Assembly (NCBI RefSeq): GCF_003367075.2
Contig: NZ_CP065936.1
Location: 1,710,001-1,742,000, forward strand
DNA length: 32,000 bases
Direction of reading: 5' to 3'
Source: Cylindrospermopsis raciborskii Cr2010
GTDB taxonomy: Bacteria; Cyanobacteriota; Cyanobacteriia; Cyanobacteriales; Nostocaceae
Shown: positions 1,678 to 21,548 of the stretch, in pieces
How the letters are laid out: each line of letters starts with the position of its first letter
How positions within the stretch are numbered: the stretch's first letter is position 1
The notes under the pieces: model-generated
Told to the model about the DNA's origin: nothing
Seen by the model: only the letters and a program-made list of their open reading frames with translations
Database searches by the model: none
Translations under genes and position numbers: made by a program

Positions 1678-1804
1678 TTTTGCCCTCAGCTAAGGGGATT
1701 TAACCTAATTTTAGCAACTATTTTTGGTTTCGTGTTGTTTTTTTTGACCGGGGAAATATCTGATAGTTTGGAACCCAACCCGCATTATATTTAGCATAAG
1801 GATT

Positions 1805-2893: not shown

Positions 2894-3020
2894 TTTTGCC
2901 CTCAGCTAAGGGGATTTAACCTAATTTTAGCAACTATTTTTGGTTTCGTGTTGTTTTTTTTGACCGGGGAAATATCTGATAGTTTGGAACCCAACCCGCA
3001 TTATATTTAGCATAAGGATT

Positions 3021-4067
3021 TTATATTTTCTCTGGGTCAATCCCAAGGGAACGTAGATAAGCAGCTAGTTTTTCTTTTTGTTGGCGCTCCTGTTCTTTAG
3101 CTTCTCGTTCCTGTTCTTTAGCCATGCGTTCCTGAGATGCAATAGTTTCTGCTCGCTCTTTAGCTAGACGCTCTTGAGATGCAATAGTTTCTGCTCGCTC
3201 TTTAGCTAGACGCTCTTGAGATGCAATAGTTTCTGCTTGCTCTCTAGCCAGACGCTCTTGAGATGCGATAGTTTCTGCTTGCTCTTTAGCCAGACGCTCA
3301 CGAATAGCGATCGCTTCCGCTTGTTCCGCAAGCTCATTTCCTGTCAATAAGAGATTCCCCTTATTATCCCACCATCTTAACCACGGTGTGGGTGGTTTCT
3401 GGTTGTCATACAGTATTCCCAATTCTATACCCATCTCCGGTATGGCATAGTGTCCTCGCCTATTCGCCTTTATTTCTTTGTATCTTTTTCTCTCTAAATG
3501 ATATACCTCTAGTGTACCCTTAAAACCATTAAATATGGCATAATATGGTATTTTTACCGCTTGTTCGTACACCCAAAACTTCCCCGCTTTTTTTAGTTTC
3601 CCGGTTTCTGGATCTATTTCATCCCCTTCTGGTGGAGGGGAACTGTCTTTTTCCTCCTTTCCATTTTTAGACGCAAATTCTATCACTATGAAGGGAGGTA
3701 CTTTTTCCTTCCATAGCACATATGACCTTCTCAATTGCCCATTTAGCCTGGATGGTACTCCGGGAACATAGAACCAGTCTGGTGCTTCTACCCCTTTTTC
3801 TGGAGGTTCTGTGAATCGCCAATATATGCCACTATCCTGTCCTATACAATAGTCTCCGTTGGGATGGATTTTTTTCAGTAATGGTTCAATTGATGTGGTT
3901 AATATTATGCTTTGTGGGTGTTCTTGGAAATTTTTCACAAAATCGTCATTGGAGTCCGGTAACTGGGTATGGTCTGGTAGGTCCAGGGGTTCCTCAGGGA
4001 GGGAAGTGGTTACATTTTGGGTGGTGGTTGAAGATTGGGGCACGGTAAGAGGGGGTACGGGGTTCAT
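3021..4067 (-). CDS. Uma2-family putative endonuclease with coiled-coil tail (copy 4, 348 aa)
   Basis: The core matches copy 3. The tail carries 6 units of the 42-bp repeat. Confidence 0.85.
   Translation of the reverse strand: MNPVPPLTVPQSSTTTQNVTTSLPEEPLDLPDHTQLPDSNDDFVKNFQEHPQSIILTTSIEPLLKKIHPNGDYCIGQDSGIYWRFTEPPEKGVEAPDWFYVPGVPSRLNGQLRRSYVLWKEKVPPFIVIEFASKNGKEEKDSSPPPEGDEIDPETGKLKKAGKFWVYEQAVKIPYYAIFNGFKGTLEVYHLERKRYKEIKANRRGHYAIPEMGIELGILYDNQKPPTPWLRWWDNKGNLLLTGNELAEQAEAIAIRERLAKEQAETIASQERLAREQAETIASQERLAKERAETIASQERLAKERAETIASQERMAKEQEREAKEQERQQKEKLAAYLRSLGIDPEKI
3085..3336 (-). repeat. Intragenic 42-bp tandem repeat block, 6 units (copy 4)
   Basis: 252 bp equals 6 x 42. The 42-aa excess over copy 2 equals 3 extra units. 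Confidence 0.9.
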
Positions 4068-4194
4068 TTTTGCCCTCAGCTAAGGGGATTTAACCTAATT
4101 TTAGCAACTGTTTTTGGTTTCGTGTTGTTTTTTTTGACCGGGGAAATATCTGATAGTTTGGAACCCAACCCGCATTATATTTAGCATAAGGATT

Positions 4195-5079
4195 TTATAT
4201 TTTCTTCGGGTCAATCCCAAGGGAACGTAGATAAGCAGCTAGTTTTTCTTTTTGTTGGCGCTCCTGTTCTTTAGCTTCTCGTTCCTGAGACGCGATCGCT
4301 TCTGCTCGCTCTTTAGCTTCTCGTTCCTGTTCTTTAGCTAGACGCTCACGAATAGCGATAACTTCCGCTTGTTCTGCACGCTCATTTCCTGTCAATAACA
4401 AGTCCCCCTTATTATCCCACCATCTTAACCACGGTGTGGGTGGTTTCTGGTTGTCATACAGTATTCCCAATTCTATGCCCATCTCCGGTATGGCATAGTG
4501 TCCTCGCCTATTCGCCTTTATTTCTTTGTATCTTTTTCTCTCTAAATGATATACCTCTAGTGTACCCTTAAAACCATTAAATATGGCATAATATGGTATT
4601 TTTACCGCTTGTTCGTACACCCAAAACTTCCCCGCTTTTTTTAGTTTCCCGGTTTCTGGATCTATTTCATCCCCTTCTGGTGGAGGAGAACTGTCTTTTT
4701 CCTCCTTTCCATTTTTAGACGCAAATTCTATCACTATGAAGGGAGGTACTTTTTCCTTCCATAGCACATAAGACCTTCTCAATTGCCCATTTAGTCTGGA
4801 TGGCACTCCGGGAACATAGAACCAGTCTGGTGCTTCTACCCCTTTTTCTGGAGGTTCTGTGAATCGCCAATATATGCCACTATCCTGTCCTATACAATAG
4901 TCTCCATTGGGATGGATTTTTTTCAGTAATGGTTCAATTGATGTGGTTAATATTATGCTTTGCGGGTGTTCTTGGAAATTTTTCACAAAATTGTCATCAG
5001 AGTCTGGTAACTGGGTATGGTCTGGTAGGTTGAAAGGTTCCCTAGGGGGAGTTACATTTTGGGTTGAAGGTTGGGACAC
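4195..5079 (-). CDS. Uma2-family putative endonuclease (copy 5, 294 aa, divergent N-terminus)
   Basis: The core is the same from LPDHTQLPDSD onward. The N-terminus is shorter and different (MSQPSTQNVTPPREPFN), and the tail has 3 repeat units with a different unit composition. Confidence 0.85.
   Translation of the reverse strand: MSQPSTQNVTPPREPFNLPDHTQLPDSDDNFVKNFQEHPQSIILTTSIEPLLKKIHPNGDYCIGQDSGIYWRFTEPPEKGVEAPDWFYVPGVPSRLNGQLRRSYVLWKEKVPPFIVIEFASKNGKEEKDSSPPPEGDEIDPETGKLKKAGKFWVYEQAVKIPYYAIFNGFKGTLEVYHLERKRYKEIKANRRGHYAIPEMGIELGILYDNQKPPTPWLRWWDNKGDLLLTGNERAEQAEVIAIRERLAKEQEREAKERAEAIASQEREAKEQERQQKEKLAAYLRSLGIDPKKI
4259..4384 (-). repeat. Intragenic 42-bp tandem repeat block, 3 units (copy 5)
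   Basis: 126 bp. The unit order (EREAKE-rich) differs from copy 2. HIP1 lies at 4292-4299. Confidence 0.85.
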
Positions 5080-5181
5080 GGTTGGTAAGAGGGGGTTTTC
5101 CCCTCAGCTCAGGGGGATTTAACCTAATTTTAGCAACTTTTTTTAGTTTGGTAATCAGGGGATCTCATTGATCTTCGGGGG

Positions 5182-5205
5182 TTGGGTTGAGAAAACCCAG
5201 CCTAC
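5182..5205. repeat. Variant of the GTTGGGTT..AACCCA..CCTAC hairpin repeat
   Basis: The sequence gTTGGGTTgagaaAACCCAgCCTAC contains a 6-bp stem (TGGGTT/AACCCA). It resembles the core of the dispersed repeat at 18126 and 22491, and lies between the vWA gene stop and the Uma2 array. Confidence 0.4.
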
Positions 5206-5324
5206 AAAGGGGGCTGAAATGTCTTTATCAAGATTAGAACGGACGATTGCGAAGCACTCCCTAGGAGAGATCCCACGGTGTTCAGATTTTAAAAACTATA
5301 TATAAAAACTATATATTAATTTTT

Positions 5325-6731
5325 CTAATCTTTCTGAATCGCATAGCATAAGCTACCAATAAACCATCCTGAATGCTGAGGACTTTTGGCAATTTCGGAT
5401 TGCATAGTTTCCGTTCTAACTTTTAGGGCGGTAAAAAATTCTTGTAAATTATAGGTTTTGGAACCGTCTTCCTCTCCGGTTCTGGTTTGCCAATCCCATT
5501 CTTTCCACCAATTGGGAACCGCTAAGGAAGGAGTATTTAGATCAAACTGTAAGTTATAAATACCCGGTTCAGATAATTTATCAGGTTGGATCACTGCTGC
5601 AAATTTGGCTTGATTTTCTTTGGGCAGAATTTGCCAATCTTTTAATTCTATGGCTGAAATTATTTCTGAATTGCTATCTACCTCTACAAACTTACGATTA
5701 AACCTATCTAACTTTTTACCTTTTATCTGGGCTTGAATCATACTTAGATCTACCAGTAAACTATATTCTGAATGGAGTAAATTCACTGTATAGTTAATGG
5801 TTGAACTCTGCTTTAAAGAAGAATTCAATTTTAGCATTTCCTGGTTGCCTTTGCTAACCGTAACCCCCTCCTTCGCTAGGGCAAAAACTTCAGTAATCCC
5901 CTGTGGTAAGGATATGGGTGTCCCATCTAAAACAGAGATTTTATCCAATACATGATCGGGATGAAAGATCATTAAGTTGCTGTTATCACTATTTAGTAAA
6001 TCCTGGTTTGTATTGTATTTTTTGAGCTGACTAAAGTAGTGCTTAATATCCCCATAGGGTCCGATAAATAATACATAAAATGGACGAAACTTTGCTGGTT
6101 CTTGACCTGTGCTGTAGTTAAAACTTCTTGGATTGTTACCTTCTAAATAAATCTTACCATCAAAGTCACTTTTAATAGCCCAAATTCCTACCGCATAATC
6201 TCGATTCTCAATATTATAATAAGTGTCATTAATTACTTTATTTAGTTTGGTTACGTCTCCACTATTTTGCTGCAAATCAGTAATAATGACAGTCATTTTT
6301 TTCTGCTCCTTTTCTGGGGGAACAATAGCAGCATCTATGGGACTGGAAACTTCTGGAAACTGGTTACTACTGCCATCATAAAATACGGAACTAATTCCAG
6401 AATTGTAGTATTCACTACTGGTAATTTTTTGCATGGGACTACCAATTCGATAATATTCAACTGGTAATTTATCACTTAACTCAAATACATTTCTGATAGA
6501 TCTAAGAGTCTTAACATAATTGGTTTCTCCGCCCTTCACATATCCTAACATGGAGCCACTACCATCTAGGTAAATGCTCACATTGAGATTATTTGATTTA
6601 CTAGTATTAGTATTCTCCACAGGAGTATGGGGAAGTTCGCATTTTAGCTCTTCTTCCTTGTTACAAGCTACTATAAAAAGACTAAGTAACAAGACAATCA
6701 AGCCTTTGCGGAAGTATACTTTGTGTATCAT
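5325..6731 (-). CDS. Predicted lipoprotein with von Willebrand factor A (vWA)-like domain
   Basis: The N-terminus MIHKVYFRKGLIVLLLSLFIVAC has a signal peptide plus a lipobox Cys23 (codon 6663-6665). A MIDAS-like DGSGSM (DxSxS) is encoded at 6549-6566. A downstream MTVIITDLQQ sits in the position of the vWA TDG strand. Confidence 0.7.
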   Translation of the reverse strand: MIHKVYFRKGLIVLLLSLFIVACNKEEELKCELPHTPVENTNTSKSNNLNVSIYLDGSGSMLGYVKGGETNYVKTLRSIRNVFELSDKLPVEYYRIGSPMQKITSSEYYNSGISSVFYDGSSNQFPEVSSPIDAAIVPPEKEQKKMTVIITDLQQNSGDVTKLNKVINDTYYNIENRDYAVGIWAIKSDFDGKIYLEGNNPRSFNYSTGQEPAKFRPFYVLFIGPYGDIKHYFSQLKKYNTNQDLLNSDNSNLMIFHPDHVLDKISVLDGTPISLPQGITEVFALAKEGVTVSKGNQEMLKLNSSLKQSSTINYTVNLLHSEYSLLVDLSMIQAQIKGKKLDRFNRKFVEVDSNSEIISAIELKDWQILPKENQAKFAAVIQPDKLSEPGIYNLQFDLNTPSLAVPNWWKEWDWQTRTGEEDGSKTYNLQEFFTALKVRTETMQSEIAKSPQHSGWFIGSLCYAIQKD

Positions 6732-6933
6732 TTTTAACTCCTATTTGTCAAAACTATTTTATTACTAATTCTATTCTGTCAGCAATATTATTACTGATTA
6801 TAAAATAATATTAAGTAACTTTACCACCAGTTCTATTGCAAATCATAGAGTAGTATGTTAGCATAAGGAAAAATAACCATACTGAGTTTCAACCAAACGA
6901 CAACAGGAACACTACAAAAAATAAGGGGGGTCA
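6732..6933. promoter_or_regulatory. AT-rich divergent intergenic region between the vWA lipoprotein gene (-) and the 4-TM/tubulin-like operon (+)
   Basis: A 202-bp gap separates divergent starts. The direct repeat TTATTACT[AG]ATT occurs at 6759-6770 and 6788-6799. A strong AAGGGGGG Shine-Dalgarno lies at 6923-6930, before the ATG at 6934. No confident -10/-35 assignment was possible. Confidence 0.3.
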
Positions 6934-7407
6934 ATGAGATCGAGGGAAATGATTACAATTATTGTACTCTTCTTAGTTGGTGGCATAGCAATGTTTTGGG
7001 GACAAAAGCTGCTCTATGAGAATCAAATTGTACCTATTCAGCAAATACCAGTAGGTTCTTGGCTGGCTAGTGACTATAATACTGCCGCTATCGTCATGTT
7101 TCTTGCTTGTTTTATTCCAACAGTTATTTGGTGTGCACTAGCAGTTAGGAATCGCTTTAATGATGGAGCTGCTACACTTCGATGGAGATTACTGTGGTGG
7201 TTATTGGGGATAATACCAATGCTGACCATTGCGATCGCGGTTTTTTACATTAATCGGAGTAGCGAAGCCCAACTTTCACTGATTTTCTTTTTTCTGCTGG
7301 ATGCCATCTGGCTATACTGGTTACCAACAGCAACCAGTTCCCCGGAAGCGGTAAAATACATTCCACCTTTCGCCTTTTTCTTGCGTCATAAAATAATGGG
7401 AGACTGA
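6934..7407 (+). CDS. Small integral membrane protein (about 4 TM segments)
   Basis: There are four hydrophobic stretches (ITIIVLFLVGGIAMFW, AAIVMFLACFIPTVIWCALAV, LLWWLLGIIPMLTIAIAVFYI, LSLIFFFLLDAIWLYWL). The stop TGA at 7405-7407 is 6 nt before the next ATG, which suggests translational coupling. An alternative start is the ATG at 6949. Confidence 0.7.
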   Translation: MRSREMITIIVLFLVGGIAMFWGQKLLYENQIVPIQQIPVGSWLASDYNTAAIVMFLACFIPTVIWCALAVRNRFNDGAATLRWRLLWWLLGIIPMLTIAIAVFYINRSSEAQLSLIFFFLLDAIWLYWLPTATSSPEAVKYIPPFAFFLRHKIMGD

Positions 7408-7413
7408 GGATAG

Positions 7414-8910
7414 ATGTCAACTTATATAATTGGAATTGGTGGTACTGGGGCTAAATCCATTGAAGCAATCATTCAATTAACCTCCATTGGGCTCTTTGGG
7501 GAAGAGTCCCTAAAGTTATTGTTTGTGGACACTGATGAAACCAATGGGAATGTCAACAGAGCTTTAGAGAGTTTAGACATATATAATAAATGTTATGAAC
7601 TGGGTTTACAAGGTAAACACCCGTGGATGAAAACAGCGATTCAATCCTTGCCTGTATGGTCACCATTTGCTGATAATGACAATGTTACCAACAAAAACCT
7701 GGCAGTTATTTTTAAATACAATCTGATTAAAGAAAATGATGCACCTCTAGGTAACTTGTTTGATGTACTTTATACATCAAAAGAGCGAGAAGCCAGCTTG
7801 GATGTGGGTTTTAGGGGAAGACCTAGCATTGGGGCGGCGGTGATGAGCCAAGTAAGAATGGATACTGCTGATAATGGTTTTTGGGGAAATTTGATGGGGC
7901 AAATTCAACGGGATGCTGGGGGAGGAAGGCGACCAAAAATCTTTTTATGTGGTTCAATTTTTGGCGGAACAGGAGCTTCAGGACTACCAACCATTGGCAG
8001 ATTAATTCATAATAGACTGGAAACACTAAAAATTAGGGATAACGTAGATTTAGGTTGTCTATTTGTCTTACCTTATTTCAGCTTTACGCCTGAAGAGAAT
8101 CCAGAGGAAGTTTATGCTCGTTCTGAACAGTTTCTTTTAAATACAGAGGCGGCACTCCGTTATTATGGCGGTCAACCTCAGGAAACATTTGACGTAGTCT
8201 ATCTATTGGGCAATCAACAATTATCCCCAGTTAGGAAATTTAGTATAGGTAAAAACACTCAATGTAATGATCCTCACTTTATTGAACTCTATGCTGCATT
8301 GGCTGGGAGAGAATTTTTATTAAACCCCCTAACGGGTGAAAAAAAAGTGGTGTTAATGAACCGAGAAAATCCAAAAATCCTAAACTGGGGGGATATTCCA
8401 GACGATGAGAAAGTACGTGCAGAAATGTTGAAAGCCACCCGTTTTGCCTTTGCTTGGTTATCTAATATTGCCCCAGAATTAAAAAAAGCTAAGGACCTGG
8501 GAGAAAAGGAATTTAGACATCGTGCTGGTACGAGTTGGTTTGTGAAATTCTTCCCAGCTCCCAGAGGAATTTTGGGGGGAGGTAATAAGTCAAATGTTGA
8601 TTTTAATGATGCTGAACAACAAAGAGCAATAGAAAAAATTACCGCTTGGTGTAAGGACTATTTGCGCTGGTTAGGGCATATTCATGAATCGCCAGGGGAA
8701 ACTATTCAATTATTTCACGGAGATCACCTTAGAAATTTGAACGATTATAATTTAGCAAATTTAATATTTGCACAGGCTGACCCTCGAGATAGAAATAAAA
8801 AATCTGAGGACACAATTCAGAAACTCAAAGAAAGTTTAAAACCTGAAAAAATAGACCCTCCAAATTTGGGAACTATTGGTCTAGCCAAATCTTTATATCA
8901 TGTTTGTTGA
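7414..8910 (+). CDS. Tubulin/FtsZ-superfamily-like GTPase (Tubulin_2-type), not housekeeping FtsZ
   Basis: An N-terminal glycine-rich loop IIGIGGTGAK is encoded at 7432-7455. LDVGFRGRPSIGAA sits where a T3-like loop would be. SIFGGTGASGLP is encoded at 7963-7983 and resembles the tubulin/FtsZ signature GGGTG[ST]G, with one G missing at the front and an extra Ala. Confidence 0.7.
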   Translation: MSTYIIGIGGTGAKSIEAIIQLTSIGLFGEESLKLLFVDTDETNGNVNRALESLDIYNKCYELGLQGKHPWMKTAIQSLPVWSPFADNDNVTNKNLAVIFKYNLIKENDAPLGNLFDVLYTSKEREASLDVGFRGRPSIGAAVMSQVRMDTADNGFWGNLMGQIQRDAGGGRRPKIFLCGSIFGGTGASGLPTIGRLIHNRLETLKIRDNVDLGCLFVLPYFSFTPEENPEEVYARSEQFLLNTEAALRYYGGQPQETFDVVYLLGNQQLSPVRKFSIGKNTQCNDPHFIELYAALAGREFLLNPLTGEKKVVLMNRENPKILNWGDIPDDEKVRAEMLKATRFAFAWLSNIAPELKKAKDLGEKEFRHRAGTSWFVKFFPAPRGILGGGNKSNVDFNDAEQQRAIEKITAWCKDYLRWLGHIHESPGETIQLFHGDHLRNLNDYNLANLIFAQADPRDRNKKSEDTIQKLKESLKPEKIDPPNLGTIGLAKSLYHVC

Positions 8911-8970
8911 TTAGATTCGCAGACTAAAAATGCTTGATTTAACATAATTCACAAGGTAAGTAATTTAGAT

Positions 8971-11900
8971 ATGGCTCATTTATTGTTACCCCAACTCAAA
9001 GATGATTGCGATGTTAAATCTGGAACTGCTGGTGTGTGGGATGCCCAAGCACCAACTACCTTTGATCAAGTTGGCACAAGTTTAGATTACGCGGCGCCAG
9101 GGGAAATCAAAAATATAAGTTCTGTGCCTACTATTTGGGCCCGTCCTTTATCAGTAGAAATGGCATTACATAATGATAAATATCCCATTCGGGAACAAAT
9201 TATTGTCCAGTGGCAAGGAATGTTAACAGTTTTGGCTCTAGCTGAAGTGCGGGCATTTCCTATTAAGGCTCAACCTTTAGAATTGGGAGCTAGGAAAGAT
9301 AAAAATCTTTTTGCTCGTTCTCTGTATGAGCTGTTACCAGATGACAGAAATAGTATTTACCAGCTCAATAATAATAAAAATCCCTGGGAAGATTTATATA
9401 TTTTCACCTGGAATAATAACCCTGTGGGGATGACTTCTCCCAGCACCTTAGTTGTCCCATCAGAAGAAGGTATTTGGGATGGTTTACCTTGGTGGAATCC
9501 AATTAAAATGGGATTTGAACCTGTACATGGGTATTTGAATAGCACTGAAAAAGCCCAGTTAGTTTTTTGGTTAAACAACCTCAAAGAGGAAATTGGCAGA
9601 GCTAATGATGGAGAAAGAGATAATACTAAAAAAGCAGTAAATATCATATTTGGACTAATCAATGATTTTATTCGCAGTTTGGGAGTAACATCGGGACTTG
9701 ATTTCCAATTAACCAATAATCAAACATTTTTCGATGTTTCCTTAAACAAGGGAGCTTTATGGGGACTAAATTTTCCCGTAAAGGTGCAACCAAGAGAATC
9801 TAATATTCGGGTTGTTCCTAGCATCAATAAACCCCATGTTAAACCCCTGTTAATCATCGATAGAGATATAGCTAACAGTTGGAATGAGCCATCCCAAAAT
9901 ATTTGGGTTCATGAAGGTAAAACCTTAGCTGCTTTACGCCCTGAAGATATAGAAAAATGGAATAAAAGTAGAGAAGTAATTTGTGTCAAGTCACAAGAGC
10001 TGTTTTTACCCGAATTGAAATTTATTGACCAGGGGGGAATATTACCTAATGCTCTACTTCCTGAAGGTGCCCAATCCCTAACATTTAAAAGTGCGCCTAT
10101 TACACCCTTAATTCCCATTAATCCGATTCTATTGGATTACTTTACTCCAGAATATTTATCTAGCAAAATAGTCGGGTTTCAGATCAATAGAAATGGTGGT
10201 GGCACATCCTTAGTCAAAGTTACATTAACCATACCCTTGTATGGAATTAAGGAAGGGAGAACACCTCAGAATTTCTATGTTTACAAAGAATATCCTCTTT
10301 TAGAGGAAAATATCATTTCCGAAGTTCCTGTGTTAGAAATATGGCCTAATTTCCAGGTGCAGGGATGGAAAGAATACTACGGCTTTTACTACGATGCTGG
10401 TTTAGGAGAAGAAACATTTCAAGTCAGTTTTCCTACTGCTGAAAAAACCCATAGTTTTTCAGAAAAAAATGAAATTTATCAAGTAGCTAAATTGAATGAG
10501 TTTCCATCTTTTCTTAAATGTAAAGATAATTACAAAAACACCATTGGTCTAATTTTATTACCAACTCCACAACCTATCAACCTAGGGGGTCAATGGGTAG
10601 TTGGTGTTGATTTTGGCACATCTTTTACCAATGTCTATGTCAATAAAAATGACAGATTGGTAGAACGTTTAGATCTAGAAAATCTCCACTGTCAAGTTAC
10701 TGATGTTTCTATTGATACTAGATTCCCTGCCTTATTTGAATTTTTCATTCCCGAAAATTTTATCCCTGAAGATAAGCCTTTTCCCCTTTCTACTGTGCTG
10801 ACAACTAAGGGTAAAACTAATGCTGGGGAAGACCAGGTAAGTCCAATTTTGGATGGTCGTATTTATATTCCTGATCTCCAATCGTTTGATCCTGAACAAC
10901 CATGGATAAAAACTAACCTGAAATGGACAACTACTAACCTGACCGCTAACGAACTGTTTCTCAAACATTTGGCATTGCATATTACAGCTTTAGCGGCTAA
11001 GAATGGTGTAAGAGAGATTCAATGGTCTTTATCATTCCCCTCCGCCTTTTCTTCAACAGAACAGAATAGATATATTAAGAGGTGGAGTTTATTAACTGGA
11101 GCATTAGTAGATACTACGGGAATTATCCATAAGACTCCCACAAGAGATGATCCTAATTATTTTAAGACTGAAAGTCTAGCAGTTGGACAATACTTTGCTG
11201 AACAAGAAGGATATGATTTAGTTGGTAGTACTTGTATTGATATGGGCGGTGGGACTTCAGACATTTCTATTTGGCAAGATGATCAACTGCTAGATCAGTG
11301 TTCTATTTTGTTAGCGGGTAGGGAGTTATTTTCCCAGTTTATAGAAATGAACCCTGATTTTTTGAAAAAATTAGATCCAAATATCAAAGACATTAAGGGT
11401 AAGCTCAAGGGTGCTGCTTTCTATGCTAAATTGGATGTTTGGATGCGTTTAGAATCAGCCAATTGGCTAGAAAAGAAAAGAGACAGATTTGAAGAAGATA
11501 GGGAATTTCAAGGACTTATACGTCTGATGGCAATTGGTATTTCTGGGTTATACTTCTATATAGGTCAAATTCTCTCTGTTTTGTCTCAAGAGCAAAAATA
11601 CTCTAGAGATGAAATTACATCGGTTTATATTGGTGGCAATGGCTCTCGTTTATTACACTGGTTAGCAGAAGGTGGTGAATTTAATCGCCATTCAGAAATT
11701 AATGCTTTGTTTAATAAAATGATGAGTATTGCTGCCAAATTACCTCAGACAGACCAACCCACACTTCTAAGTCAAAACCCCAAGGATGAAGCTGCTTGTG
11801 GTTTGGTTTTAAGAGAGAGAAGATTAAGAGGTTTGGGTAGGAATGATAGAGATCCGATTATTGCTGGTGAGGACTGTATTATTAATGGTCAAACTTTTGA

Positions 11901-12231
11901 CTATCACGATCGTTTAAATTTCAGAAGTGATATTAGTACATATCAAATCTCTTTCAATCAGTTGAAATTGTTTTTAAATTCCTTTCATACCAGCCTAGAT
12001 GAACTACGTATTGAGGGTGTGAAACCATTAGAAACCTACCAGGTTAAGGAAAATTTAGATGACCCAGATCCAGACTACAATGCAAAATTGTGGCGTGCAA
12101 CAGAAAGAGAATTGAGAAATGATCTTAATAGTATCCGAGGTAGTATTGAAGATATTAGGCAAGAACCACCTTTTATAATGGCATTAAAAGCTCTTTTGAG
12201 GGTTCTAGGCAAAGAATGGGCCGGAAAGTAA
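8971..12231 (+). CDS. 1086-aa protein: unrecognised N-terminal half plus C-terminal Hsp70/actin-fold (ASKHA) ATPase module
   Basis: Phosphate-1-like VVGVDFGTSFTNV (DFGTS at 10609-10623). Phosphate-2-like CIDMGGGTSDISIW (11239-11262; compare Hsp70 DLGGGTFDVS). Adenosine-motif-like VYIGGNGSRLL (11629-11646; compare Hsp70 LVGGSTRIP). The order and spacing fit the ASKHA fold. Residues 1 to about 540 carry no motif I recognise. Confidence 0.8.
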   Translation: MAHLLLPQLKDDCDVKSGTAGVWDAQAPTTFDQVGTSLDYAAPGEIKNISSVPTIWARPLSVEMALHNDKYPIREQIIVQWQGMLTVLALAEVRAFPIKAQPLELGARKDKNLFARSLYELLPDDRNSIYQLNNNKNPWEDLYIFTWNNNPVGMTSPSTLVVPSEEGIWDGLPWWNPIKMGFEPVHGYLNSTEKAQLVFWLNNLKEEIGRANDGERDNTKKAVNIIFGLINDFIRSLGVTSGLDFQLTNNQTFFDVSLNKGALWGLNFPVKVQPRESNIRVVPSINKPHVKPLLIIDRDIANSWNEPSQNIWVHEGKTLAALRPEDIEKWNKSREVICVKSQELFLPELKFIDQGGILPNALLPEGAQSLTFKSAPITPLIPINPILLDYFTPEYLSSKIVGFQINRNGGGTSLVKVTLTIPLYGIKEGRTPQNFYVYKEYPLLEENIISEVPVLEIWPNFQVQGWKEYYGFYYDAGLGEETFQVSFPTAEKTHSFSEKNEIYQVAKLNEFPSFLKCKDNYKNTIGLILLPTPQPINLGGQWVVGVDFGTSFTNVYVNKNDRLVERLDLENLHCQVTDVSIDTRFPALFEFFIPENFIPEDKPFPLSTVLTTKGKTNAGEDQVSPILDGRIYIPDLQSFDPEQPWIKTNLKWTTTNLTANELFLKHLALHITALAAKNGVREIQWSLSFPSAFSSTEQNRYIKRWSLLTGALVDTTGIIHKTPTRDDPNYFKTESLAVGQYFAEQEGYDLVGSTCIDMGGGTSDISIWQDDQLLDQCSILLAGRELFSQFIEMNPDFLKKLDPNIKDIKGKLKGAAFYAKLDVWMRLESANWLEKKRDRFEEDREFQGLIRLMAIGISGLYFYIGQILSVLSQEQKYSRDEITSVYIGGNGSRLLHWLAEGGEFNRHSEINALFNKMMSIAAKLPQTDQPTLLSQNPKDEAACGLVLRERRLRGLGRNDRDPIIAGEDCIINGQTFDYHDRLNFRSDISTYQISFNQLKLFLNSFHTSLDELRIEGVKPLETYQVKENLDDPDPDYNAKLWRATERELRNDLNSIRGSIEDIRQEPPFIMALKALLRVLGKEWAGK

Positions 12232-12312
12232 GACCGCAGATTACAAGTGGGCAAACTAAATTGCCCGCTCCCTTGCCCAAAGTTTATCATTTATATAATG
12301 TGGAGGTTAAAG

Positions 12313-13110
12313 ATGCAAGATTGTCCTGTATGTGGGTGGAAATATAACAAGTATAATATAAGTATAGAAACAGGTGAGTTTTGTCCACAATGTGGTTGGC
12401 ATTTGTTCCCAGCTCCTCATAATATGAGAGCAGTATCAGGTGAACTACAAACAGTAAAGTGGGCCAGAAAAACCTGGGACAGATTATCTCAATTGCAGAA
12501 GGAATGTTCACTTTTACAGGAAAGAAATCATTCATTACTAAAACAATATTTGGCAAAAATAGAGGATATCCAGGCTAATACTCAGAATTTGCCAGAAATG
12601 CTCAGTATTCTACGGCAAATTAATGAAAAAAGCCAAGAAAAAGACTCTTTCGGTAATCAAACACAAACAACTAGGCCTGGGGATTATGAGGAGGATAAAC
12701 AAGTAAGTAACTATGAAATTGATGACCCAGAAATAACTAGTTTGGTGGAGAATTATAATAATCACGCGGAATTTACAGATAAGATAGATGTTTCTGAAAC
12801 GGAAGAAAGCAAGTCTCATCGTTGGTCTGGTGGCAAAGATCCAGCAATTTTTGAGTTGAATTCCAGAGGTAGGGGAGACTATTGGATTATTGCTAATCAA
12901 TATTTGGTGCCAAAACTCAAGCATAAAATTAATCAGCACAGTTATAAAACTATATCAGTGTTATTTGATTTCCGGAATTATGACGACAATGAGCATGTAA
13001 GTTTAGATGATATGATGCTGGTTAAACCTGCTAAGGTTATCCCTATTCCTAATCAAGAAAAATGGCAATTACAAGACACTGGAATCTTAGAGTTTAAAAC
13101 ACAAATATAA
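12313..13110 (+). CDS. Zinc-ribbon protein with coiled-coil linker and C-terminal shared G-x-LEF domain (paralog 1)
   Basis: I prefer the ATG at 12313, which follows a GGAGG 7 nt upstream, over the track's GTG at 12247. CPVCGW...CPQCGW (12322-12399) gives four Cys in a zinc-ribbon arrangement. The C-terminal domain at 12730-13095 aligns with the three downstream paralogs. Confidence 0.7.
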   Translation: MQDCPVCGWKYNKYNISIETGEFCPQCGWHLFPAPHNMRAVSGELQTVKWARKTWDRLSQLQKECSLLQERNHSLLKQYLAKIEDIQANTQNLPEMLSILRQINEKSQEKDSFGNQTQTTRPGDYEEDKQVSNYEIDDPEITSLVENYNNHAEFTDKIDVSETEESKSHRWSGGKDPAIFELNSRGRGDYWIIANQYLVPKLKHKINQHSYKTISVLFDFRNYDDNEHVSLDDMMLVKPAKVIPIPNQEKWQLQDTGILEFKTQI

Positions 13111-13147
13111 GCCCAAACATAAAAATTAAAAAAACTTATAAAAAACT

Positions 13148-14578
13148 ATGAATAAACTTATGAAACACCACTTTTACCTGACCCTCACATTATCTAGTAT
13201 ATTGCTCTTGGTTTCTCCCGTTCGTGCTGTAGATGATCTGGTGCAAGATCCACCACCGGGTAATATAACTAATATTGCCATAGGTGTCAATCAGCAACAG
13301 AATATCCCAGAAAAATTTGCAGGGTTAAAAAATGCGGTAAGATCCTTCAATCGGAATTTAAAGAATTTTGTTCAAGATAAAAAAGATACTGGAAATTTGA
13401 ACTCTCGTGCGGTTCTTGCCCAAATTAATGACCTAAAGCAGGAGATTGCTACCTTACCTCAAACTCCCCTCTTATCTCCCCCGGTTGCTAGGAGTAATGC
13501 TATCCTTAAAGAACTTGACCGTGCTACCAAATACTTGGAAAATGGATTAGAACCGAAAGGAGTAACTGGAATACAAAAATATTTGGGGTTTTTTGCCAAA
13601 AAAAAAGTAAACAAAAAATATTATGGAAACTTTGGCAAAACAACACAGGAAGAAATAGAGAAATTTACTAATGCAAAAATCCAACAGTTAGAAAAGGAGA
13701 TTACAACCATTCAATCTTTGACTGGTAAAACTGGGATAAAATCAGTAGCAGTATTAAGTACTAACAGTATTAGCAATATCCCAATTTCCTCCACCAAAGT
13801 GGATCCTAAGTCAAATAATAATGAACCCAATAATAATGCGAAAGAACTCGCAGCACTCAAAAGTAGATTAGATGGAATGGAGAAAACAGCAATAATCATA
13901 GGTTTGATCTTTTTCATCGGTATTTTTGTTTGTATATATGTATTGTCTCAAATCATAGGAAATCCAGAAATGATCAAACGACTTAACAGACTTGATCAAT
14001 CTAACAATAATACTATGAAAAAGTTCAATTATTTAGAAACCCAGTTAGAGGTCATACGAGATAAGCAAAAAACTTTAATTGAGAAAATCAATAACTTAAG
14101 TAAATTAGATAGGTTTAATGGTGAGCAAGTTTCAATTCCCGAACCTCCTAAACTACCAGTAGATAAACGTTATCAATCACAAAAATTACCATTCATACCC
14201 AATAATTTGGAAAATCCTATCATTGTACTCTATAACAACAAGGCTAATGTGCTAATTGATAGAGCAATTCCAGTGTCGGAGGCTAAACTTACAGCTTATG
14301 AGCGTCGCTTGGGTCGTTATACTCAACCTGTTTTAGAGGAAACTAGACGGGGTAATTATTGGGTTATCATCGAAGGTACTGTGAACTATCTTGTTCCTAA
14401 ATTTGACATCAGAATTAATAGTCATAATTATAGTACAATATCTCTATTTTTTGAGTGTTTTAAATATGATCACAAGAGCATAAATGATTTTAAGGATTTT
14501 AGACTGATTAGTCCGGCAATAGTTTCCTCAACCGGTGACAAATGGGAGTTAGTTGAACGGGGAGAGTTGGAATTTTAA
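13148..14578 (+). CDS. Single-pass membrane protein: signal peptide, about 210-aa ectodomain, TM, coiled coil and C-terminal shared domain (paralog 2)
   Basis: The signal peptide is MNKLMKHHFYLTLTLSSILLLVSPVRA|VDD and the TM segment is AIIIGLIFFIGIFVCIYVLSQII. The shared domain at 14213-14575 ends in ERGELEF. Confidence 0.75.
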   Translation: MNKLMKHHFYLTLTLSSILLLVSPVRAVDDLVQDPPPGNITNIAIGVNQQQNIPEKFAGLKNAVRSFNRNLKNFVQDKKDTGNLNSRAVLAQINDLKQEIATLPQTPLLSPPVARSNAILKELDRATKYLENGLEPKGVTGIQKYLGFFAKKKVNKKYYGNFGKTTQEEIEKFTNAKIQQLEKEITTIQSLTGKTGIKSVAVLSTNSISNIPISSTKVDPKSNNNEPNNNAKELAALKSRLDGMEKTAIIIGLIFFIGIFVCIYVLSQIIGNPEMIKRLNRLDQSNNNTMKKFNYLETQLEVIRDKQKTLIEKINNLSKLDRFNGEQVSIPEPPKLPVDKRYQSQKLPFIPNNLENPIIVLYNNKANVLIDRAIPVSEAKLTAYERRLGRYTQPVLEETRRGNYWVIIEGTVNYLVPKFDIRINSHNYSTISLFFECFKYDHKSINDFKDFRLISPAIVSSTGDKWELVERGELEF

Positions 14579-14584
14579 CCCATA

Positions 14585-14613
14585 TTTCATACTTCAACCC
14601 AACCTACGTTCAT
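14585..14613. repeat. 3' fragment of the dispersed hairpin repeat
   Basis: TTTCATACTTCAACCCAACCTACGTTCAT is identical to the 3' portion of the copies at 18126-18215 and 22491-22575. The 5' arm (GTTGGG) is missing. Confidence 0.75.
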
Positions 14614-14684
14614 ATTATATTTAATTCCACCCACCCACTTATATATAAACCCAAACATAAAAATGACCAATATGGAACTAACTT

Positions 14685-15644
14685 ATGAAGTACCGTTTGA
14701 AGTACCATTTTTACCTCACCCTCACATTATCTAGCATATTACTGTTGTTTCCCCATGTTCGTGCTGTGGATGATTGGGTGGAATATTTTGACCTAAAGCA
14801 GCGGATTTCTACTTTAAGTAGTAAGATTATTAATAGTAATACTCCAGCACCTGAATCCTTACCCACCAAGGTAGATCCTAAGCCAAATAATAATGCGAAG
14901 GAACTTGCGGAAATTAAAAGTAGATTAGATGAAATGGAAAAAGTCATAATAATGGTGGCTGTGCTATGTTGTGCTGGTATGTTTATTTGTTTATTTGTAT
15001 TATTTCAAGTCACAGAAAATCCAAATTTGATTAAAGACTTTAACATAATTTATCGCTACCATAAGAGTAGTGTGATAAGACTCGATGCTTTGGAAAATCA
15101 ATTACAGGTGGTGCTAGTTAGACAAAAAACCTTAACGGACACAATCAATAACTTAACTAACTCGGATAAGTCTGATGGTGAGCAAGTCTCCCCAATTCCT
15201 CAGCAAATCCCACAAGAAATTCCTCAACCTAAACCACCAACAGATCAACCATATCAAACACCAAAATTAGGACCCAATATTTTTGATAATCCTATAATAG
15301 CACTGTATAATGGCAAAGTTAAGTTGCTAGCTGATATGGTAATTAGAGTATCAGAGGTTAAACTTACAGCTCGCGACCGTCGTTCTGGTCGTTACACTAG
15401 GCCTGTTTTAGAAGAAAACAGACAGGGTAATTATTGGATTATCAATCAACGAAATATGATCTATCTTGTTCCTAAATTTAACATGAGAGTTACTAGTCGT
15501 AATTATGATGCTATATCTGTGTTTTTTGAATGTATTAAATATGATCCCAATAGTAGGAAAAGTTTTAAGTTGATTAATCCAGCAATCGTTTTCTTAAAGG
15601 GTAGTAAATGGGAGCTATTTCAACGGGGAGAGTTAGAATTTTAA
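14685..15644 (+). CDS. Single-pass membrane protein, short-ectodomain paralog of the previous gene (paralog 3)
   Basis: It has the same signal peptide (HFYLTLTLSSILLLFPHVRA|VDD), the same juxtamembrane TKVDPKPNNNAKELAEIKSRLDEMEK and a TM segment VAVLCCAGMFICLFVLFQV. The shared domain at 15288-15641 ends in QRGELEF. Confidence 0.75.
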   Translation: MKYRLKYHFYLTLTLSSILLLFPHVRAVDDWVEYFDLKQRISTLSSKIINSNTPAPESLPTKVDPKPNNNAKELAEIKSRLDEMEKVIIMVAVLCCAGMFICLFVLFQVTENPNLIKDFNIIYRYHKSSVIRLDALENQLQVVLVRQKTLTDTINNLTNSDKSDGEQVSPIPQQIPQEIPQPKPPTDQPYQTPKLGPNIFDNPIIALYNGKVKLLADMVIRVSEVKLTARDRRSGRYTRPVLEENRQGNYWIINQRNMIYLVPKFNMRVTSRNYDAISVFFECIKYDPNSRKSFKLINPAIVFLKGSKWELFQRGELEF

Positions 15645-15712
15645 CCTATAATAATTTTAGCTGGTCTAATTAGTTTTAGTTACGTGGTAATTTAAATAAC
15701 TGGAGTTGGAAA

Positions 15713-16690
15713 ATGGTTAATTCAGATGATATCCTCGCTAGAATTCAAAAGATAGAAAGCTACCTATCTACAGCTGATGCAAGAAACAATGGCCCGGTCA
15801 TGGTTACTGGTGCTTGTAATATGGAAAAAATTATTCCCGTAAATATCTCGGAAGAGGAAATAATAGAAGTTTATAATGAAGTACCCGGGGTTTTACTCAG
15901 AAACTCAATTGTTACACAGTTAACTGATGCAAGTTATCGGGATGGAGACCAGCCCATTATTTTACAACCCGATGACTATGGTAAGTATTGGTTAATTGTC
16001 TCGGATGAAGATAACATTTTTGTTATACCCTCTATTGAGGTTAAGTCTTATATTTATAGACTAAAAAGCATGGCTAAAGTATTTGATTTTCAGGGTGGTA
16101 GTCCTTCTACAGATAATCATTATTTATTAATTAAACCCGCAAGATTCCAGACTTTACCCAGTGGAAGGGAATGGAAAATGGAGGAAAAGGGGATTTTAGA
16201 GTTTACTAATCATGGTGGAAAAGATTCACTGGCTAAATCTTTGCACAAGTCTATACAGAATAATCAGACAAATACCAATTCGGAAATCTCGAAAATTCAT
16301 CAGGAGTTAAATAAGATAAAATCTCAATTAGAACATATTTCTTCCCAGGGAGACTGGCAAGCTTCTATATCCGAAATAAGAGACAATCAAGCAAATACCA
16401 ATTTGGAACTCATGAGAGCTAATCAACAATTAGACCGACAGTTAAATGAGATAAAATCTCAATTAGAACAAGTTACCCCCCAGGAAGATTGGCAATCTCT
16501 TATTTGGGAAATAAGAGATAATCAAGCAAATACCAATTTGGAACTCAGGAGAGCTAATCGACAGTTAGACCGTCAATTAAATGATATTAGCTCCCAACTG
16601 GAGCAGTTGAGATCCCAAGATATTAGACTCCAAATAGATTTACTCAGGGTACGCTTAGAATCTTTAGAGAGCAGGTCAAGTAGAGATTAA
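15713..16690 (+). CDS. Soluble protein with N-terminal shared domain followed by 45-aa coiled-coil repeats (paralog 4)
   Basis: The shared domain at 15851-16204 (…GKYWLIVSDEDNIFVIPS…LLIKPARF…EWKMEEKGILEF) aligns with the C-termini of paralogs 1-3. A Q/N/L-rich repeat region follows. Confidence 0.75.
   Translation: MVNSDDILARIQKIESYLSTADARNNGPVMVTGACNMEKIIPVNISEEEIIEVYNEVPGVLLRNSIVTQLTDASYRDGDQPIILQPDDYGKYWLIVSDEDNIFVIPSIEVKSYIYRLKSMAKVFDFQGGSPSTDNHYLLIKPARFQTLPSGREWKMEEKGILEFTNHGGKDSLAKSLHKSIQNNQTNTNSEISKIHQELNKIKSQLEHISSQGDWQASISEIRDNQANTNLELMRANQQLDRQLNEIKSQLEQVTPQEDWQSLIWEIRDNQANTNLELRRANRQLDRQLNDISSQLEQLRSQDIRLQIDLLRVRLESLESRSSRD
16253..16645 (+). repeat. Intragenic tandem repeat, about three units (41, 45 and 45 aa; 135-bp period)
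   Basis: The units start at 16253, 16376 and 16511. Units 2 and 3 both begin IRDNQANTNLEL[MR]RAN[QR]QLDRQLN[ED]I and are highly similar at the nucleotide level. Confidence 0.85.
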
Positions 16691-20333: not shown

Positions 20334-21548
20334 TTGTTACCAGTGCTGAAACAAGATTACATGGAAGTTTCCCAGGATCAGCCTATTCATTTTGAGGCTC
20401 CACTCCAACTGTTGCTCTTTGTTGATGGAAGACCCAAGTCTCGCCAACAAGTGCAACGAATATGCGCGTACCTACAAGATCTGGAAGTAGACTATAGTTT
20501 TGATCTGCAAATCATTGATGTCGGGCAAGAACCCTATTTAGCAGAACATTTCAGACTGGTTGCAACACCAGCTTTAGTCAAAATCCATCCAGAACCGCAA
20601 CAAACTTTGGCTGGAAGTAATATCATTGCCCAATTACAAAATTGGTGGCCACGGTGGCAAACTGCCATAGATACATCTCTAGCTTTACAGAAAGACTTAC
20701 ACGAACTTCCAGAACCAGATATTTCTATGATTCACCCCCCATCTACTATACATTCTGTGGCCCTTTCTGCTGAGCTAATTAAGTTGTCAGACCAGATTTT
20801 TTACCTCAATCAGGAAAAAGCAAAACTTCAAGAACAGTTACAATTTAAGGAACGTATCATAGCCATGCTGGCTCATGACCTTCGTAACCCTTTAACTGCT
20901 GCTGCCATAGCTATAGACACTCTTCAATCTGATTATAATTCCGATTTGGGTCAGTTTCAACGCCTAAAACCAAACTTGACGGAAAATTTACTCAAACAGG
21001 CCCGTCATCAAACCCGGATTATTGATAGGATGATAGCCGATCTGTTGGAAATCGGACGCGAAAACGATAATGATTTTAACATAGCACCACAAAGGTTGGA
21101 ATTGGGCAAACTCAGTTTTGAGGTACTAGAAGAATTACGAGACCGTTATGTTGGTAAGTCTCAAACGGTAGAGACTGATCTTCCATCTGATCTGCCTTGT
21201 GTGTATGCAGACCCAGAGAGAATTCGTCAAGTTTTGATTAATCTGTTAGACAATGCTATCAAGTATACACCCAAGGAAGGTAAAATTAGTTTAGCAGGAC
21301 TGCATCGGACAACACAAAAGGTACAATTTAGTATTGGTGATACAGGTCCTGGTATTCCCCATGAAAACCGAGATCACATTTTTGAAAATCATTTCCGTCT
21401 AGAACGAGATCAAGCAGCGGATGGTTATGGTATTGGTTTGTCCCTATGTCAACGTATTATCCGTGCCCACTACGGTCAGATTTGGGTAGATTCTACCCCT
21501 AATGGTGGCGCTTGGTTTCATTTCACTTTACCAGTATATCCTTCTTAA
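20334..21548 (+). CDS. sasA: Adaptive-response sensor histidine kinase SasA (KaiC-interacting clock output kinase)
   Basis: The N-terminal KaiB-like domain is [20 protein letters not shown]...[17 protein letters not shown]. The H-box is [13 protein letters not shown], and the HATPase N/G boxes are LLDNAIKYT and GDTGPGIP...GYGIGLSL. The track start is a TTG; the ATG at 20361 is an equally plausible start. Confidence 0.9.

Follow-up and report, generated by a model that had tools for sequence, protein, structure and literature searches.

Within a 32,000-nucleotide stretch of the Cylindrospermopsis raciborskii Cr2010 genome (contig NZ_CP065936.1, positions 1,710,001 to 1,742,000; hereafter the window) lies a cluster of eight genes, which brings together an exported lipoprotein, a small membrane protein, a putative tubulin/FtsZ-like GTPase, a very large protein with a putative ASKHA ATPase half, and four proteins sharing one domain. 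For convenience, they are called the lipoprotein, TM4 (157 amino acids, aa), Tub (498 aa), the giant (1086 aa), and the adaptors A1 to A4. A check of the open reading frames (ORFs) of the window recovers all eight (Table 1). The lipoprotein gene is read on the minus strand, and the other seven follow one another on the plus strand, with gaps of 6, 60, 81, 37, 106, and 68 bp, the TM4 stop codon standing 6 bp ahead of the Tub start. The ORFs, gaps, motifs, and shared domain are all found at the positions given in an earlier note on this DNA.

Table 1. Features of the eight-gene cluster, with positions in the window (HMM, hidden Markov model; TM, transmembrane).
Feature	Position	Strand	Description
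Exported lipoprotein, 468 aa	5325..6731	-	N-terminal vWA-like domain with MIDAS-type (metal-ion-dependent adhesion site) motif; C-terminal beta-rich region
Divergent intergenic region	6732..6933		202 bp between the lipoprotein gene and the seven-gene plus-strand array; position only
TM4, 4-TM membrane protein, 157 aa	6934..7407	+	Four hydrophobic segments read from the sequence
Tub, putative divergent tubulin/FtsZ-like GTPase, 498 aa	7414..8910	+	Loop motifs; Pfam Tubulin_2
Giant protein, 1086 aa	8971..12231	+	N-terminal ~540 aa of no recognised family; C-terminal ~545 aa putative ASKHA ATPase with large inserts
A1, 265 aa	12313..13110	+	Zinc ribbon (CPVCGW...CPQCGW), coiled coil, C-terminal adaptor domain at ~12739-13095 (HMM residues 143-261)
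A2, 476 aa	13148..14578	+	Signal peptide, ~210-aa helical ectodomain, one TM helix, cytoplasmic linker, C-terminal adaptor domain at ~14216-14575 (HMM residues 357-476)
A3, 319 aa	14685..15644	+	A2 paralogue with shorter ectodomain, one TM helix, C-terminal adaptor domain at ~15294-15641 (HMM residues 204-319)
A4, 325 aa	15713..16690	+	N-terminal adaptor domain at ~15851-16204 (HMM residues 47-164), long repeat-containing coiled coil

The 81-bp gap holds only if A1 starts at the ATG at 12313, from which the 265-aa product is read that stands verbatim in NCBI records. The longest A1 ORF begins at a GTG at 12247, 66 bp before the annotated ATG, and would add the stretch MGKLNCPLPCPKFIIYIMWRLK (12247-12312). 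Since the NCBI records hold the 265-aa form, the GTG start is probably an over-extension and the added stretch is probably not translated. In these records (UJL35046-UJL35052 for the locus), all eight products are named 'hypothetical protein'; the exceptions among cluster members are some 498-aa copies, which NCBI calls 'FtsZ/tubulin family protein'. An NCBIfam scan of all eight proteins yielded nothing past coiled-coil noise. The region between the divergent genes is presumed to hold both promoters; a consensus scan of the locus for promoters and terminators was uninformative because the DNA is AT-rich. The G+C content is 0.34-0.41 in the cluster, compared with 0.42-0.44 in the DNA upstream.

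The gene set is conserved far beyond this species. A scan using one genome per species found a Tub relative in at least 245 genomes or loci, and synteny was read from the best 80 of these 245, all of them cyanobacterial (Nostocales, Oscillatoriales, Chroococcales, Pleurocapsales, and Thermosynechococcaceae/Acaryochloridaceae). By tblastn, TM4 is found in all 80 loci, directly upstream of Tub in most of them. The giant gene follows Tub in 77; the three other loci (L029, L059, and L062) end 0.2-1.8 kb past Tub. Genes matching the adaptors are found downstream in about 60 loci by tblastn and in 66 by an HMM of the adaptor domain, while the lipoprotein gene, traced by its family HMM, is upstream of TM4 and divergent in 57. 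Across the 66 related loci and the window, the interval from the giant to the last adaptor contains only five ORFs of at least 100 aa outside the families of the system. The flanking genes of the window are not part of this pattern, as neither upp nor Uma2 neighbours occur in any of the 80 loci. A chance gene neighbourhood is rejected on the basis of this synteny, which supports the earlier note in treating the genes as one multi-gene system. As for the check that the note had suggested, Tub, giant, and adaptor-domain genes do co-occur across cyanobacteria. Compared with Raphidiopsis brookii D9, a close relative, DNA homology is restricted to 5304-16432; it begins 21 bp beyond the lipoprotein stop codon and ends inside A4, and the flanks are unrelated. 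With homology bounded in this way and no shared flanks, the cluster must be taken to move as a module.

HMMs built from the cyanobacterial proteins recover the lipoprotein, TM4, Tub, and the giant in a distant genome (L081), where the four genes are co-directional, and the same four proteins are recovered by HMM on a plasmid of Picosynechococcus PCC 7003 (L084). The HMMs also pick out Tub and the giant in Prevotella sp. oral taxon 299, where the flanking ORFs encode a protein having a lipobox and an ERSGS motif, a TM protein of 147 aa, and a small protein whose C-terminus resembles the adaptors. Twelve IMG/VR contigs contain the same ordered core. On one of them (L091), the core is located just downstream of genes for a relaxase and a tyrosine integrase, with OmpA/MotB-like genes at its end. 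A complete system is carried by a 47.5-kb mobilizable plasmid of Gloeothece verrucosa PCC 7822, together with TIR-domain, WD40, HEPN/MNT, TnpB, and Tn7 genes. No giant homologue was found in phage genome records. Some genomes carry two loci, and apparently decayed copies also occur. In Trichodesmium erythraeum IMS101 (L026, 1.85-1.87 Mb), an in-frame stop breaks the giant gene (706 + 382 aa) and about 1.4 kb separates the two parts of TM4; in the draft assembly of R. brookii D9 (L014), where sequencing errors are possible, Tub and the giant each run over two frames.

Comparison within the species reveals a further feature. A second C. raciborskii genome (L100) carries the locus at the same site, with an array of Uma2 genes upstream and upp downstream. 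Amino-acid identity to the window is 99% for Uma2 and 96% for the lipoprotein, then 76% for TM4, 82% for Tub, 78% for the giant, and 63% for A1; it is 95% for A2, 96% for A3, and 100% for A4, and, further downstream, 99.5% for upp and 100% for both the YGGT and SLH proteins. DNA identity is 58-95% (mostly 76-90%) over 6750-13000 and mostly 96-100% from 13250 on. TM4, Tub, the giant, and A1 form a co-varying allelic cassette in an otherwise near-identical chromosome region, and the sequences suggest that its right-hand boundary is sharp and falls inside the A1 gene, just ahead of the adaptor domain. The cassette is consistent with mutual physical dependence of the four products, and with diversifying or balancing selection, or allelic replacement by transfer.

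The assignment of Tub relies on short, well-conserved motifs. The loops T1 (GIGGTGAK, residues 7-14), T3-like (LDVGFRGRPxIG, 129-140), T4 (GGTGASG, 184-190), and T5-like (LPYF, 219-222) are invariant or nearly so among 13 diverse homologues, and their order, T1, T3, T4, T5, is correct for the superfamily. In the same alignment, the segment N285...E291 is invariant and constitutes a candidate T7 loop, and a C-terminal peptide, G-x-x-G-L-A-K-x-L-Y, is also conserved. The Pfam Tubulin_2 model matches Tub at 27.0 bits, exactly its 27-bit gathering cut-off, over residues 168-231 only, and PF00091 scores 14 bits; PF13809 is precomputed on most of the 120 best homologues. A profile search of PDB sequences with Tub returned no tubulin or FtsZ, and hhalign of the Tub alignment with Escherichia coli FtsZ placed only T4 on T4, with a probability of 2%. 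With Npun_AF098, an FtsZl1 protein of Nostoc punctiforme, hhalign gave E = 2e-4 and a probability of 47% over residues 3-205, comprising T1-T4 only. This protein (1109 aa) itself scores 385 bits across the whole Tubulin_2 model (profile positions 1-355). Because the match between the two spans T1-T4 only, and because of the 27 versus 385 bits, Tub is placed, by sequence comparison, on a separate, distant branch of Tubulin_2-like proteins. Its identification as an FtsZl1 protein proper was rejected, given its 498 aa, a Tubulin_2 match of about 60 residues, and no coiled-coil/helical architecture of about 1000 aa. An exhaustive profile search collected 2092 representatives of the Tub family at 50% clustering, of which 899 have E <= 1e-30 and are nearly all about 500 aa long. 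The tubulin/FtsZ-like GTPase proposed at the outset can, thus, be retained on its loop motifs, the Tubulin_2 match at cut-off, and the FtsZl1 alignment over T1-T4, with the qualification that the relationship is only distant.

The giant contains the nucleotide-binding motifs VGVDFGTSFTNVY, CIDMGGGTSDISIW, and VYIGGNGSRL. Across 16 homologues of 50-69% identity, the phosphate-1 (D547/G549/T550), phosphate-2 (D757/G759-G761/T762), and adenosine (G888/G889) residues are invariant and in canonical order, which confirms that the 1086-aa protein has all three Hsp70/actin nucleotide-binding motifs. HMMER matches among PDB sequences are to FtsA, MreB, and actin only, at the nucleotide motifs and below threshold (E = 0.15-2.3). 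The AlphaFold2 (AF2) model has a mean pLDDT of 65, with several stretches in 549-960 below 50, and its top Foldseek matches in the PDB are mostly Mbl, MreB, the nucleotide-binding domains of BiP, Hsp70, and DnaK, glucokinase, and TsaB (E = 1.5e-3 to 0.1, target-normalised TM-scores of 0.3-0.37). From motifs and model together, the C-terminal half is accepted here as a predicted ASKHA ATPase core with large inserts. The N-terminal ~540 residues consist of an alpha/beta part and a beta-sandwich-like part, and match nothing in the searches run. An Hsp70 chaperone was considered and rejected, as the giant has no PF00012 match and no substrate-binding domain, unlike the genuine HSP70 encoded in L081, which scores 268 bits with PF00012. 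In six loci (L009, L010, L037, L051, L053, and L063), a second, N-terminally truncated giant paralogue is found among the adaptor genes. These paralogues of 730-994 aa correspond to residues ~340-1086 (from ~137 in L051), and cover at least the beta-rich middle and the ASKHA part.

Tub and the giant also occur as single polypeptides. Fusions of the two are present in three representative clusters (P0312, P0284, and P0339), for example P0312 (1605 aa), which is made up of Tub at 1-489 and the giant at 504-1597, and they are the reason why the two proteins are argued to be a physical pair. The 6-bp spacing of TM4 and Tub, and the joint divergence of TM4, Tub, the giant, and A1 within the species, likewise speak for physical coupling. 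A helical N-terminal domain of about 250 residues, with the motif DLACHAAFPLxLTPDLLYQIW, can be fused to either partner: P0246, P0251, and P0340 have it on Tub, and L031, L042, and L057 on the giant.

The domain common to the four downstream proteins spans about 120 residues and was delimited by alignments and its own HMM. This HMM finds 270 domains in 213 proteins, from 67 of 81 sources (the 66 related loci plus the window), and 211 of the 213 proteins are encoded on the same strand as Tub. Loci contain one to six adaptor genes, which fall into four architecture types: a C-terminal domain preceded by a TM helix (~76 proteins) or by a zinc ribbon (45), two to four tandem domains (~50), and an N-terminal domain followed by a coiled coil (~30). 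Adaptors are 25-50% identical between loci where Tub and the giant are 62-73% identical. An AF2 model of the domain (14186-14575, from a 10-sequence alignment) reaches a pLDDT of 87.2 and a pTM of 0.82, and shows three helices and nine strands; Foldseek gave no match for it in the PDB (best E = 0.69) or BFVD (best E = 0.45). As modelled, the domain is predicted to be an autonomous fold and, judging from the Foldseek searches of these two collections, a new one. The earlier observation of one unrecognised domain in four proteins has, therefore, been extended to a large family with a confident fold model.

Within the adaptor array, A2 and A3 have a near-identical signal peptide (HFYLTLTLSSILLL...VRAVDD, at 13148-13240 and 14685-14777) and a near-identical juxtamembrane segment (TKVDPK..NNNAKELA..KSRLD.MEK, at 13840-13930 and 14860-14950), and their ectodomains differ by a deletion or insertion of about 160 residues. 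Their sequences point to a recent tandem duplication. A4 has only weak, coiled-coil-type matches in Pfam, PADLOC, and NCBIfam. Its coiled coil (16250-16600) contains two direct repeats of about 55 residues, QGDWQ..I.EIRDNQANTNLEL.RANQQLDRQLNEIKSQLEQ, which are 83% identical to each other in DNA.

The lipoprotein combines a lipobox (FIVAC) with the motif DGSGSM, of which DGSGS occupies residues 56-60, and a TD-L motif at 150-153. In an alignment of 13 sequences, which includes the distant locus and a member at 19% identity, the lipobox Cys23, D56, S60, and D152 are invariant. The family pattern, D-x-[ST]-x-S followed by a hydrophobic strand ending in T-D-L, corresponds at the motif level to the MIDAS pattern of vWA domains. 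Some copies bear the automatic UniRef names VWFA or VWA domain-containing protein. No match was obtained in Pfam (including the VWA models), NCBIfam, or sequence and profile searches of the PDB. Of the vWA/MIDAS lipoprotein first proposed, the lipobox, the MIDAS-type motif, and the divergent gene have stood, and the vWA domain has gone undetected by Pfam and PDB sequence searches. The family HMM also matches in L081, L084, and six IMG/VR loci. TM4, a predicted membrane anchor, has an HMM that also matches L081 and L084, and the same position in the Prevotella and IMG/VR loci is taken by a hydrophobic ORF of ~147-160 aa.

From these five protein families, a working scheme can be proposed, in which all of the biochemistry (turnover of GTP and ATP, polymerisation, and docking), the nature of the signal, and the cellular outcome are inferred. 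Outside the cytoplasmic membrane would be the MIDAS-type vWA-like lipoprotein and the variable ectodomains of the single-pass adaptors; TM4 and the adaptor TM helices would lie in the membrane, and Tub, the giant, and the adaptor domain, borne by membrane-bound, zinc-ribbon, or coiled-coil proteins, would be inside. TM4 would hold Tub at the membrane, where Tub and the giant would act as one unit, as FtsZ does with FtsA. The adaptors may be exchangeable input or localisation modules that dock on the Tub-giant pair through their common domain. A periplasmic cue, sensed by the vWA lipoprotein and/or the ectodomains, would then switch a nucleotide-dependent assembly of Tub and the giant at the membrane, and in some relatives the output may pass through a trypsin-like peptidase or an iSTAND-MoxR-vWA module.

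This last step refers to associations found in related loci. In P0224, the first 32 residues of the giant are replaced by Trypsin_2 and VMAP-M1, an N-terminal module of the kind seen on VMAP and iSTAND proteins. In three loci (L031, L042, and L057), a trio of iSTAND, MoxR-like AAA, and CoxE-type vWA genes abuts or overlaps a giant gene encoding the extra helical N-terminal domain, and in L031 and L042 the trio is located between Tub and the giant. The iSTAND protein of L057 matches bacterial Death-like domain 1, but weakly and below threshold (E = 0.0058). That the helical domain might be an effector-associated domain (EAD) common to the neighbouring iSTAND proteins was considered and rejected; its HMM has no match on these proteins, and homotypic coupling to iSTAND is therefore unsupported. 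In a Coleofasciculaceae metagenome-assembled genome (L013, 2709-8452), two STAND-like genes, encoding AAA_35 (402 aa) and AAA_35 with WD40 (1518 aa), are inserted between TM4 and Tub, and part the lipoprotein-TM4 pair from Tub and the giant by 7 kb. In the distant locus L081, only 4 bp part the lipoprotein gene from a trypsin gene upstream, and an HSP70 gene is found downstream. Immediately ahead of the system in this locus (2262-6825) are genes for a ResIII/DEAD helicase and for two DUF488 proteins, along with a weak match, below threshold, to a dual-OB (DuOB) protein; they may form another conflict module.

Considering the sharing of VMAP domains and the operonic linkage to iSTAND, together with mobility, multiplicity and decay, and a hypervariable cassette within the species, the cluster may best be read as a self-contained, mobile, envelope-spanning system, which functionally belongs with the nucleoside triphosphate (NTP)-dependent, threshold-regulated conflict systems (anti-invader or programmed cell death). 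The probability of this reading is put at about 0.5. Several results weigh against it. A PADLOC scan of all eight proteins found no known defence protein, the matches in PADLOC-DB v2 being coiled-coil noise only (JetC and LmuB, at E >= 4e-4, on the A4 coiled coil), and neither a toxin nor a nuclease nor any other recognised effector is encoded in the locus of the window itself. Only a minority of loci supply the conflict links, namely, three of the 80 for iSTAND, one trypsin fusion cluster, and one distant locus. The vWA assignment of the lipoprotein is at the motif level only, plus an automatic UniProt name, and the ASKHA fold match of the giant is weak (pLDDT 65, best E = 1.5e-3). Finally, every C. 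raciborskii strain sampled has the locus, and the two that were compared have it at one chromosomal position, which would also fit a useful housekeeping accessory. A more specific version of the conflict reading is tentative: the cluster would represent a widespread, hitherto unrecognised class of immune or self-protection systems, in which Tub and the giant co-assemble at the inner membrane under the control of an array of exchangeable transmembrane receptors with a common new-fold docking domain and of the periplasmic MIDAS lipoprotein, and in which the cassette alleles are kept by conflict-driven selection.

The earlier note had left the choice between a conflict or defence system and a cytoskeleton-like one, and the evidence leans to the former. 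The latter, the main rival, is less likely, and would make the cluster a housekeeping or conditional apparatus for membrane remodelling, the role suggested for FtsZl1-vWA operons (Makarova & Koonin 2010), or a cytoskeleton. In it, TM4 would anchor, and the adaptors position, a tubulin-like and an actin-like filament, which together would give the envelope its shape or mend it, make vesicles, or organise a membrane domain. It stays plausible because no recognisable effector is found in the window and because the conflict links come from so few loci. The pairing of a tubulin-fold with an actin-fold NTPase, as in FtsZ-FtsA, speaks for such an apparatus, as do the many membrane or periplasmic components, the OmpA/MotB-like genes that end distant variants, as in FtsZl1 operons, and the retention of the locus by all sampled strains, at one site where two were compared. 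Nevertheless, TM4, Tub, the giant, and A1 differ by 18-37% in amino acids within the species, compared with 0-1% in the flanks, and the genomic position is not kept between genera. Copies on plasmids and integrative elements, two loci in some genomes, decayed copies in some lineages, and fusion or operonic links to trypsin, VMAP-M1, and iSTAND-MoxR-vWA likewise fit a housekeeping role poorly, and a total of at least 245 species genomes in a very large collection suggests patchiness rather than universality.

By analogy with the focal adhesions of gliding Myxococcus, where the envelope is bridged by a coupling between the vWA lipoprotein CglB on one side and MreB and the cytoplasmic GTPase MglA on the other, an exported vWA-like lipoprotein with an intact MIDAS-type motif, single-pass trans-envelope proteins, and a cytoplasmic GTPase plus an actin-fold ATPase could form a complex for surface adhesion or contact. 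Such a complex is improbable here, as no motor or channel of the TolQR, ExbBD, or MotAB type is encoded in the locus, no homology to Glt or Agl components was seen in the Pfam, PADLOC, and NCBIfam scans, and the system is present in planktonic, non-gliding, unicellular genera such as Microcystis, Crocosphaera, and Picosynechococcus, as well as in Prevotella from gut and mouth. Partition systems of types II and III also have tubulin-like and actin-like NTPases as their motors, and the presence of such NTPases here, with copies of the locus on cyanobacterial plasmids, might recall a module that segregates DNA or maintains plasmids, comparable to the partition systems based on TubZ-type tubulin or ParM/AlfA-type actin, but this is highly improbable, since most copies are chromosomal, the Gloeothece plasmid has its own ParA/ParB, the conserved set has no DNA-binding adaptor or centromere-like repeat, the exported lipoprotein and periplasmic ectodomains have no role in partition, and phage records contain no giant homologue.

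The genes around the cluster complete the picture of the window. Upstream, on the minus strand (757-5079), are four tandem paralogous genes of the Uma2 family (PF05685), at 757-1677, 1805-2893, 3021-4067, and 4195-5079. Their cores are near-identical, and their C-terminal tails vary in the count of 'ERLAKEQAETIASQ'-type repeats. The array is found at the same site in other C. raciborskii genomes (L100 and L101), in four to five or more copies. On the near downstream side of the cluster are upp, a YGGT-family gene, and a gene for an SLH-domain protein, followed by a housekeeping context that includes a KaiB-domain histidine kinase (SasA-like) and polyphosphate kinase (20334-21548 and 22896-25091).

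If the proposed system is confirmed, it would offer the first tractable case in which NTPases of the tubulin and actin folds work as a pair in a process other than cell division or DNA segregation, and one linked to sensing in the periplasm. The predictions of Makarova & Koonin (2010) and Kaur et al. (2020), by which diverged tubulins and HSP70-fold proteins form regulated membrane-proximal assemblies in conflict systems, would gain a testable case, for which compact plasmid-borne versions are available in Gloeothece and Picosynechococcus, kin of genetically tractable cyanobacteria. The system would also bring a new giant ASKHA architecture and, in the adaptor domain, a new fold. Its locus would be a hypervariable one in a cyanobacterium that forms blooms and produces toxins, where it could influence the dynamics of phage and host, and, should the immune reading be true, the cluster would constitute a receptor-coupled 'cytoskeletal' immune effector.

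The pair of Tub and giant invites comparison with FtsZ and FtsA. In both cases, genes for a tubulin-fold GTPase and an actin-fold ATPase lie side by side, and, as for FtsZ-FtsA, action at the membrane is proposed here; the family-level matches of the giant are to FtsA and MreB only. The C-terminal tail of FtsZ binds FtsA, which the conserved C-terminal peptide of Tub recalls. However, the sequences are very far apart, the giant is three times the size of FtsA, no dcw-cluster context is found within the window, and the flanks are not conserved across genera. Unlike FtsZ-FtsA, the present system is accessory, mobile, and variable.

Closer in theme are the operons of FtsZl1 (Tubulin_2), vWA, (B7), and OmpA/MotB genes, for which membrane remodelling was predicted (Makarova & Koonin 2010, PMC2875224). 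Both systems place the gene of a highly diverged tubulin/FtsZ-like GTPase next to those of a vWA-type protein, putative in the present case, and of membrane proteins, both are patchily distributed across bacteria, including cyanobacteria, and both are experimentally uncharacterised; the L091 variant of the present system even ends with OmpA/MotB-like genes. In contrast to Tub, FtsZl1 proteins are ~900-1130 aa long, with a coiled coil, a helical C-terminal domain, and a full-length Tubulin_2 match (PMC2875224). Their description includes no giant ASKHA protein, TM4, or adaptor domain. The 2010 list contains a single Trichodesmium FtsZl1 protein, Tery_1707, at 2.60 Mb, whereas the present Trichodesmium locus is at 1.85-1.87 Mb, and the Tub family is absent from that list for Trichodesmium. 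A 2023 phylogeny sets Tubulin_2 proteins aside.

The GAP1-N2/DO-GTPase-centric conflict systems, with tubulin and vWA or HSP70 and GrpE, provide a second comparison (Kaur, Burroughs, Iyer & Aravind 2020, PMC7159879). As in the present system, the components predicted to multimerise are NTPases of the tubulin family and of the HSP70 fold, there is an extracellular vWA domain (putative here), many components have TM segments, the linked genes form variable arrays, and action near the membrane is proposed. These systems are defined by a TRAFAC GTPase (with zinc ribbons) and a GAP1 protein with FNIII repeats, and membership is rejected, as no ORF of the locus has a P-loop GTPase, GAP1, or FNIII match. 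Furthermore, their tubulin and HSP70 themes do not overlap and belong to Firmicutes and Actinobacteria (PMC7159879), whereas the present system is one of Cyanobacteria and Bacteroidota, and Tub and the ASKHA giant are always found as a pair. Nor does the text of Kaur et al. (2020) speak of any component resembling ASKHA proteins, actin, or MreB.

The same authors call the iSTAND-MoxR-vWA trio the 'iSTAND ternary system' (Kaur et al. 2020). The likeness to such MoxR-vWA ternary systems (VMAP/iSTAND) consists of the trio being operonic with a giant homologue in three of the 80 related loci, and of the one giant homologue with the Trypsin and VMAP-M1 N-terminal module typical of VMAP proteins. 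Membership is rejected, as the locus of the window has no MoxR, iSTAND, or VMAP-C, and its vWA-like protein is exported as a lipoprotein, whereas theirs is a co-chaperone in the cytoplasm. What connects the two is association and shared domains.

No named system with this gene set was found in the PubMed Central and bioRxiv literature or in PADLOC, where only related classes appear, in agreement with the earlier failure to match it to any. The word 'undescribed' must, however, be limited to the gene set, because thematically related predicted systems are already in print (PMC2875224, PMC7159879). Predicted conflict systems near the membrane that combine a diverged tubulin, an extracellular vWA domain, and an HSP70-fold NTPase are an established theme, while, as far as the searches reach, the gene set, the 500-aa Tub family as an entity, the giant ASKHA architecture, the adaptor domain, the iSTAND link, and the within-species cassette are described here for the first time.

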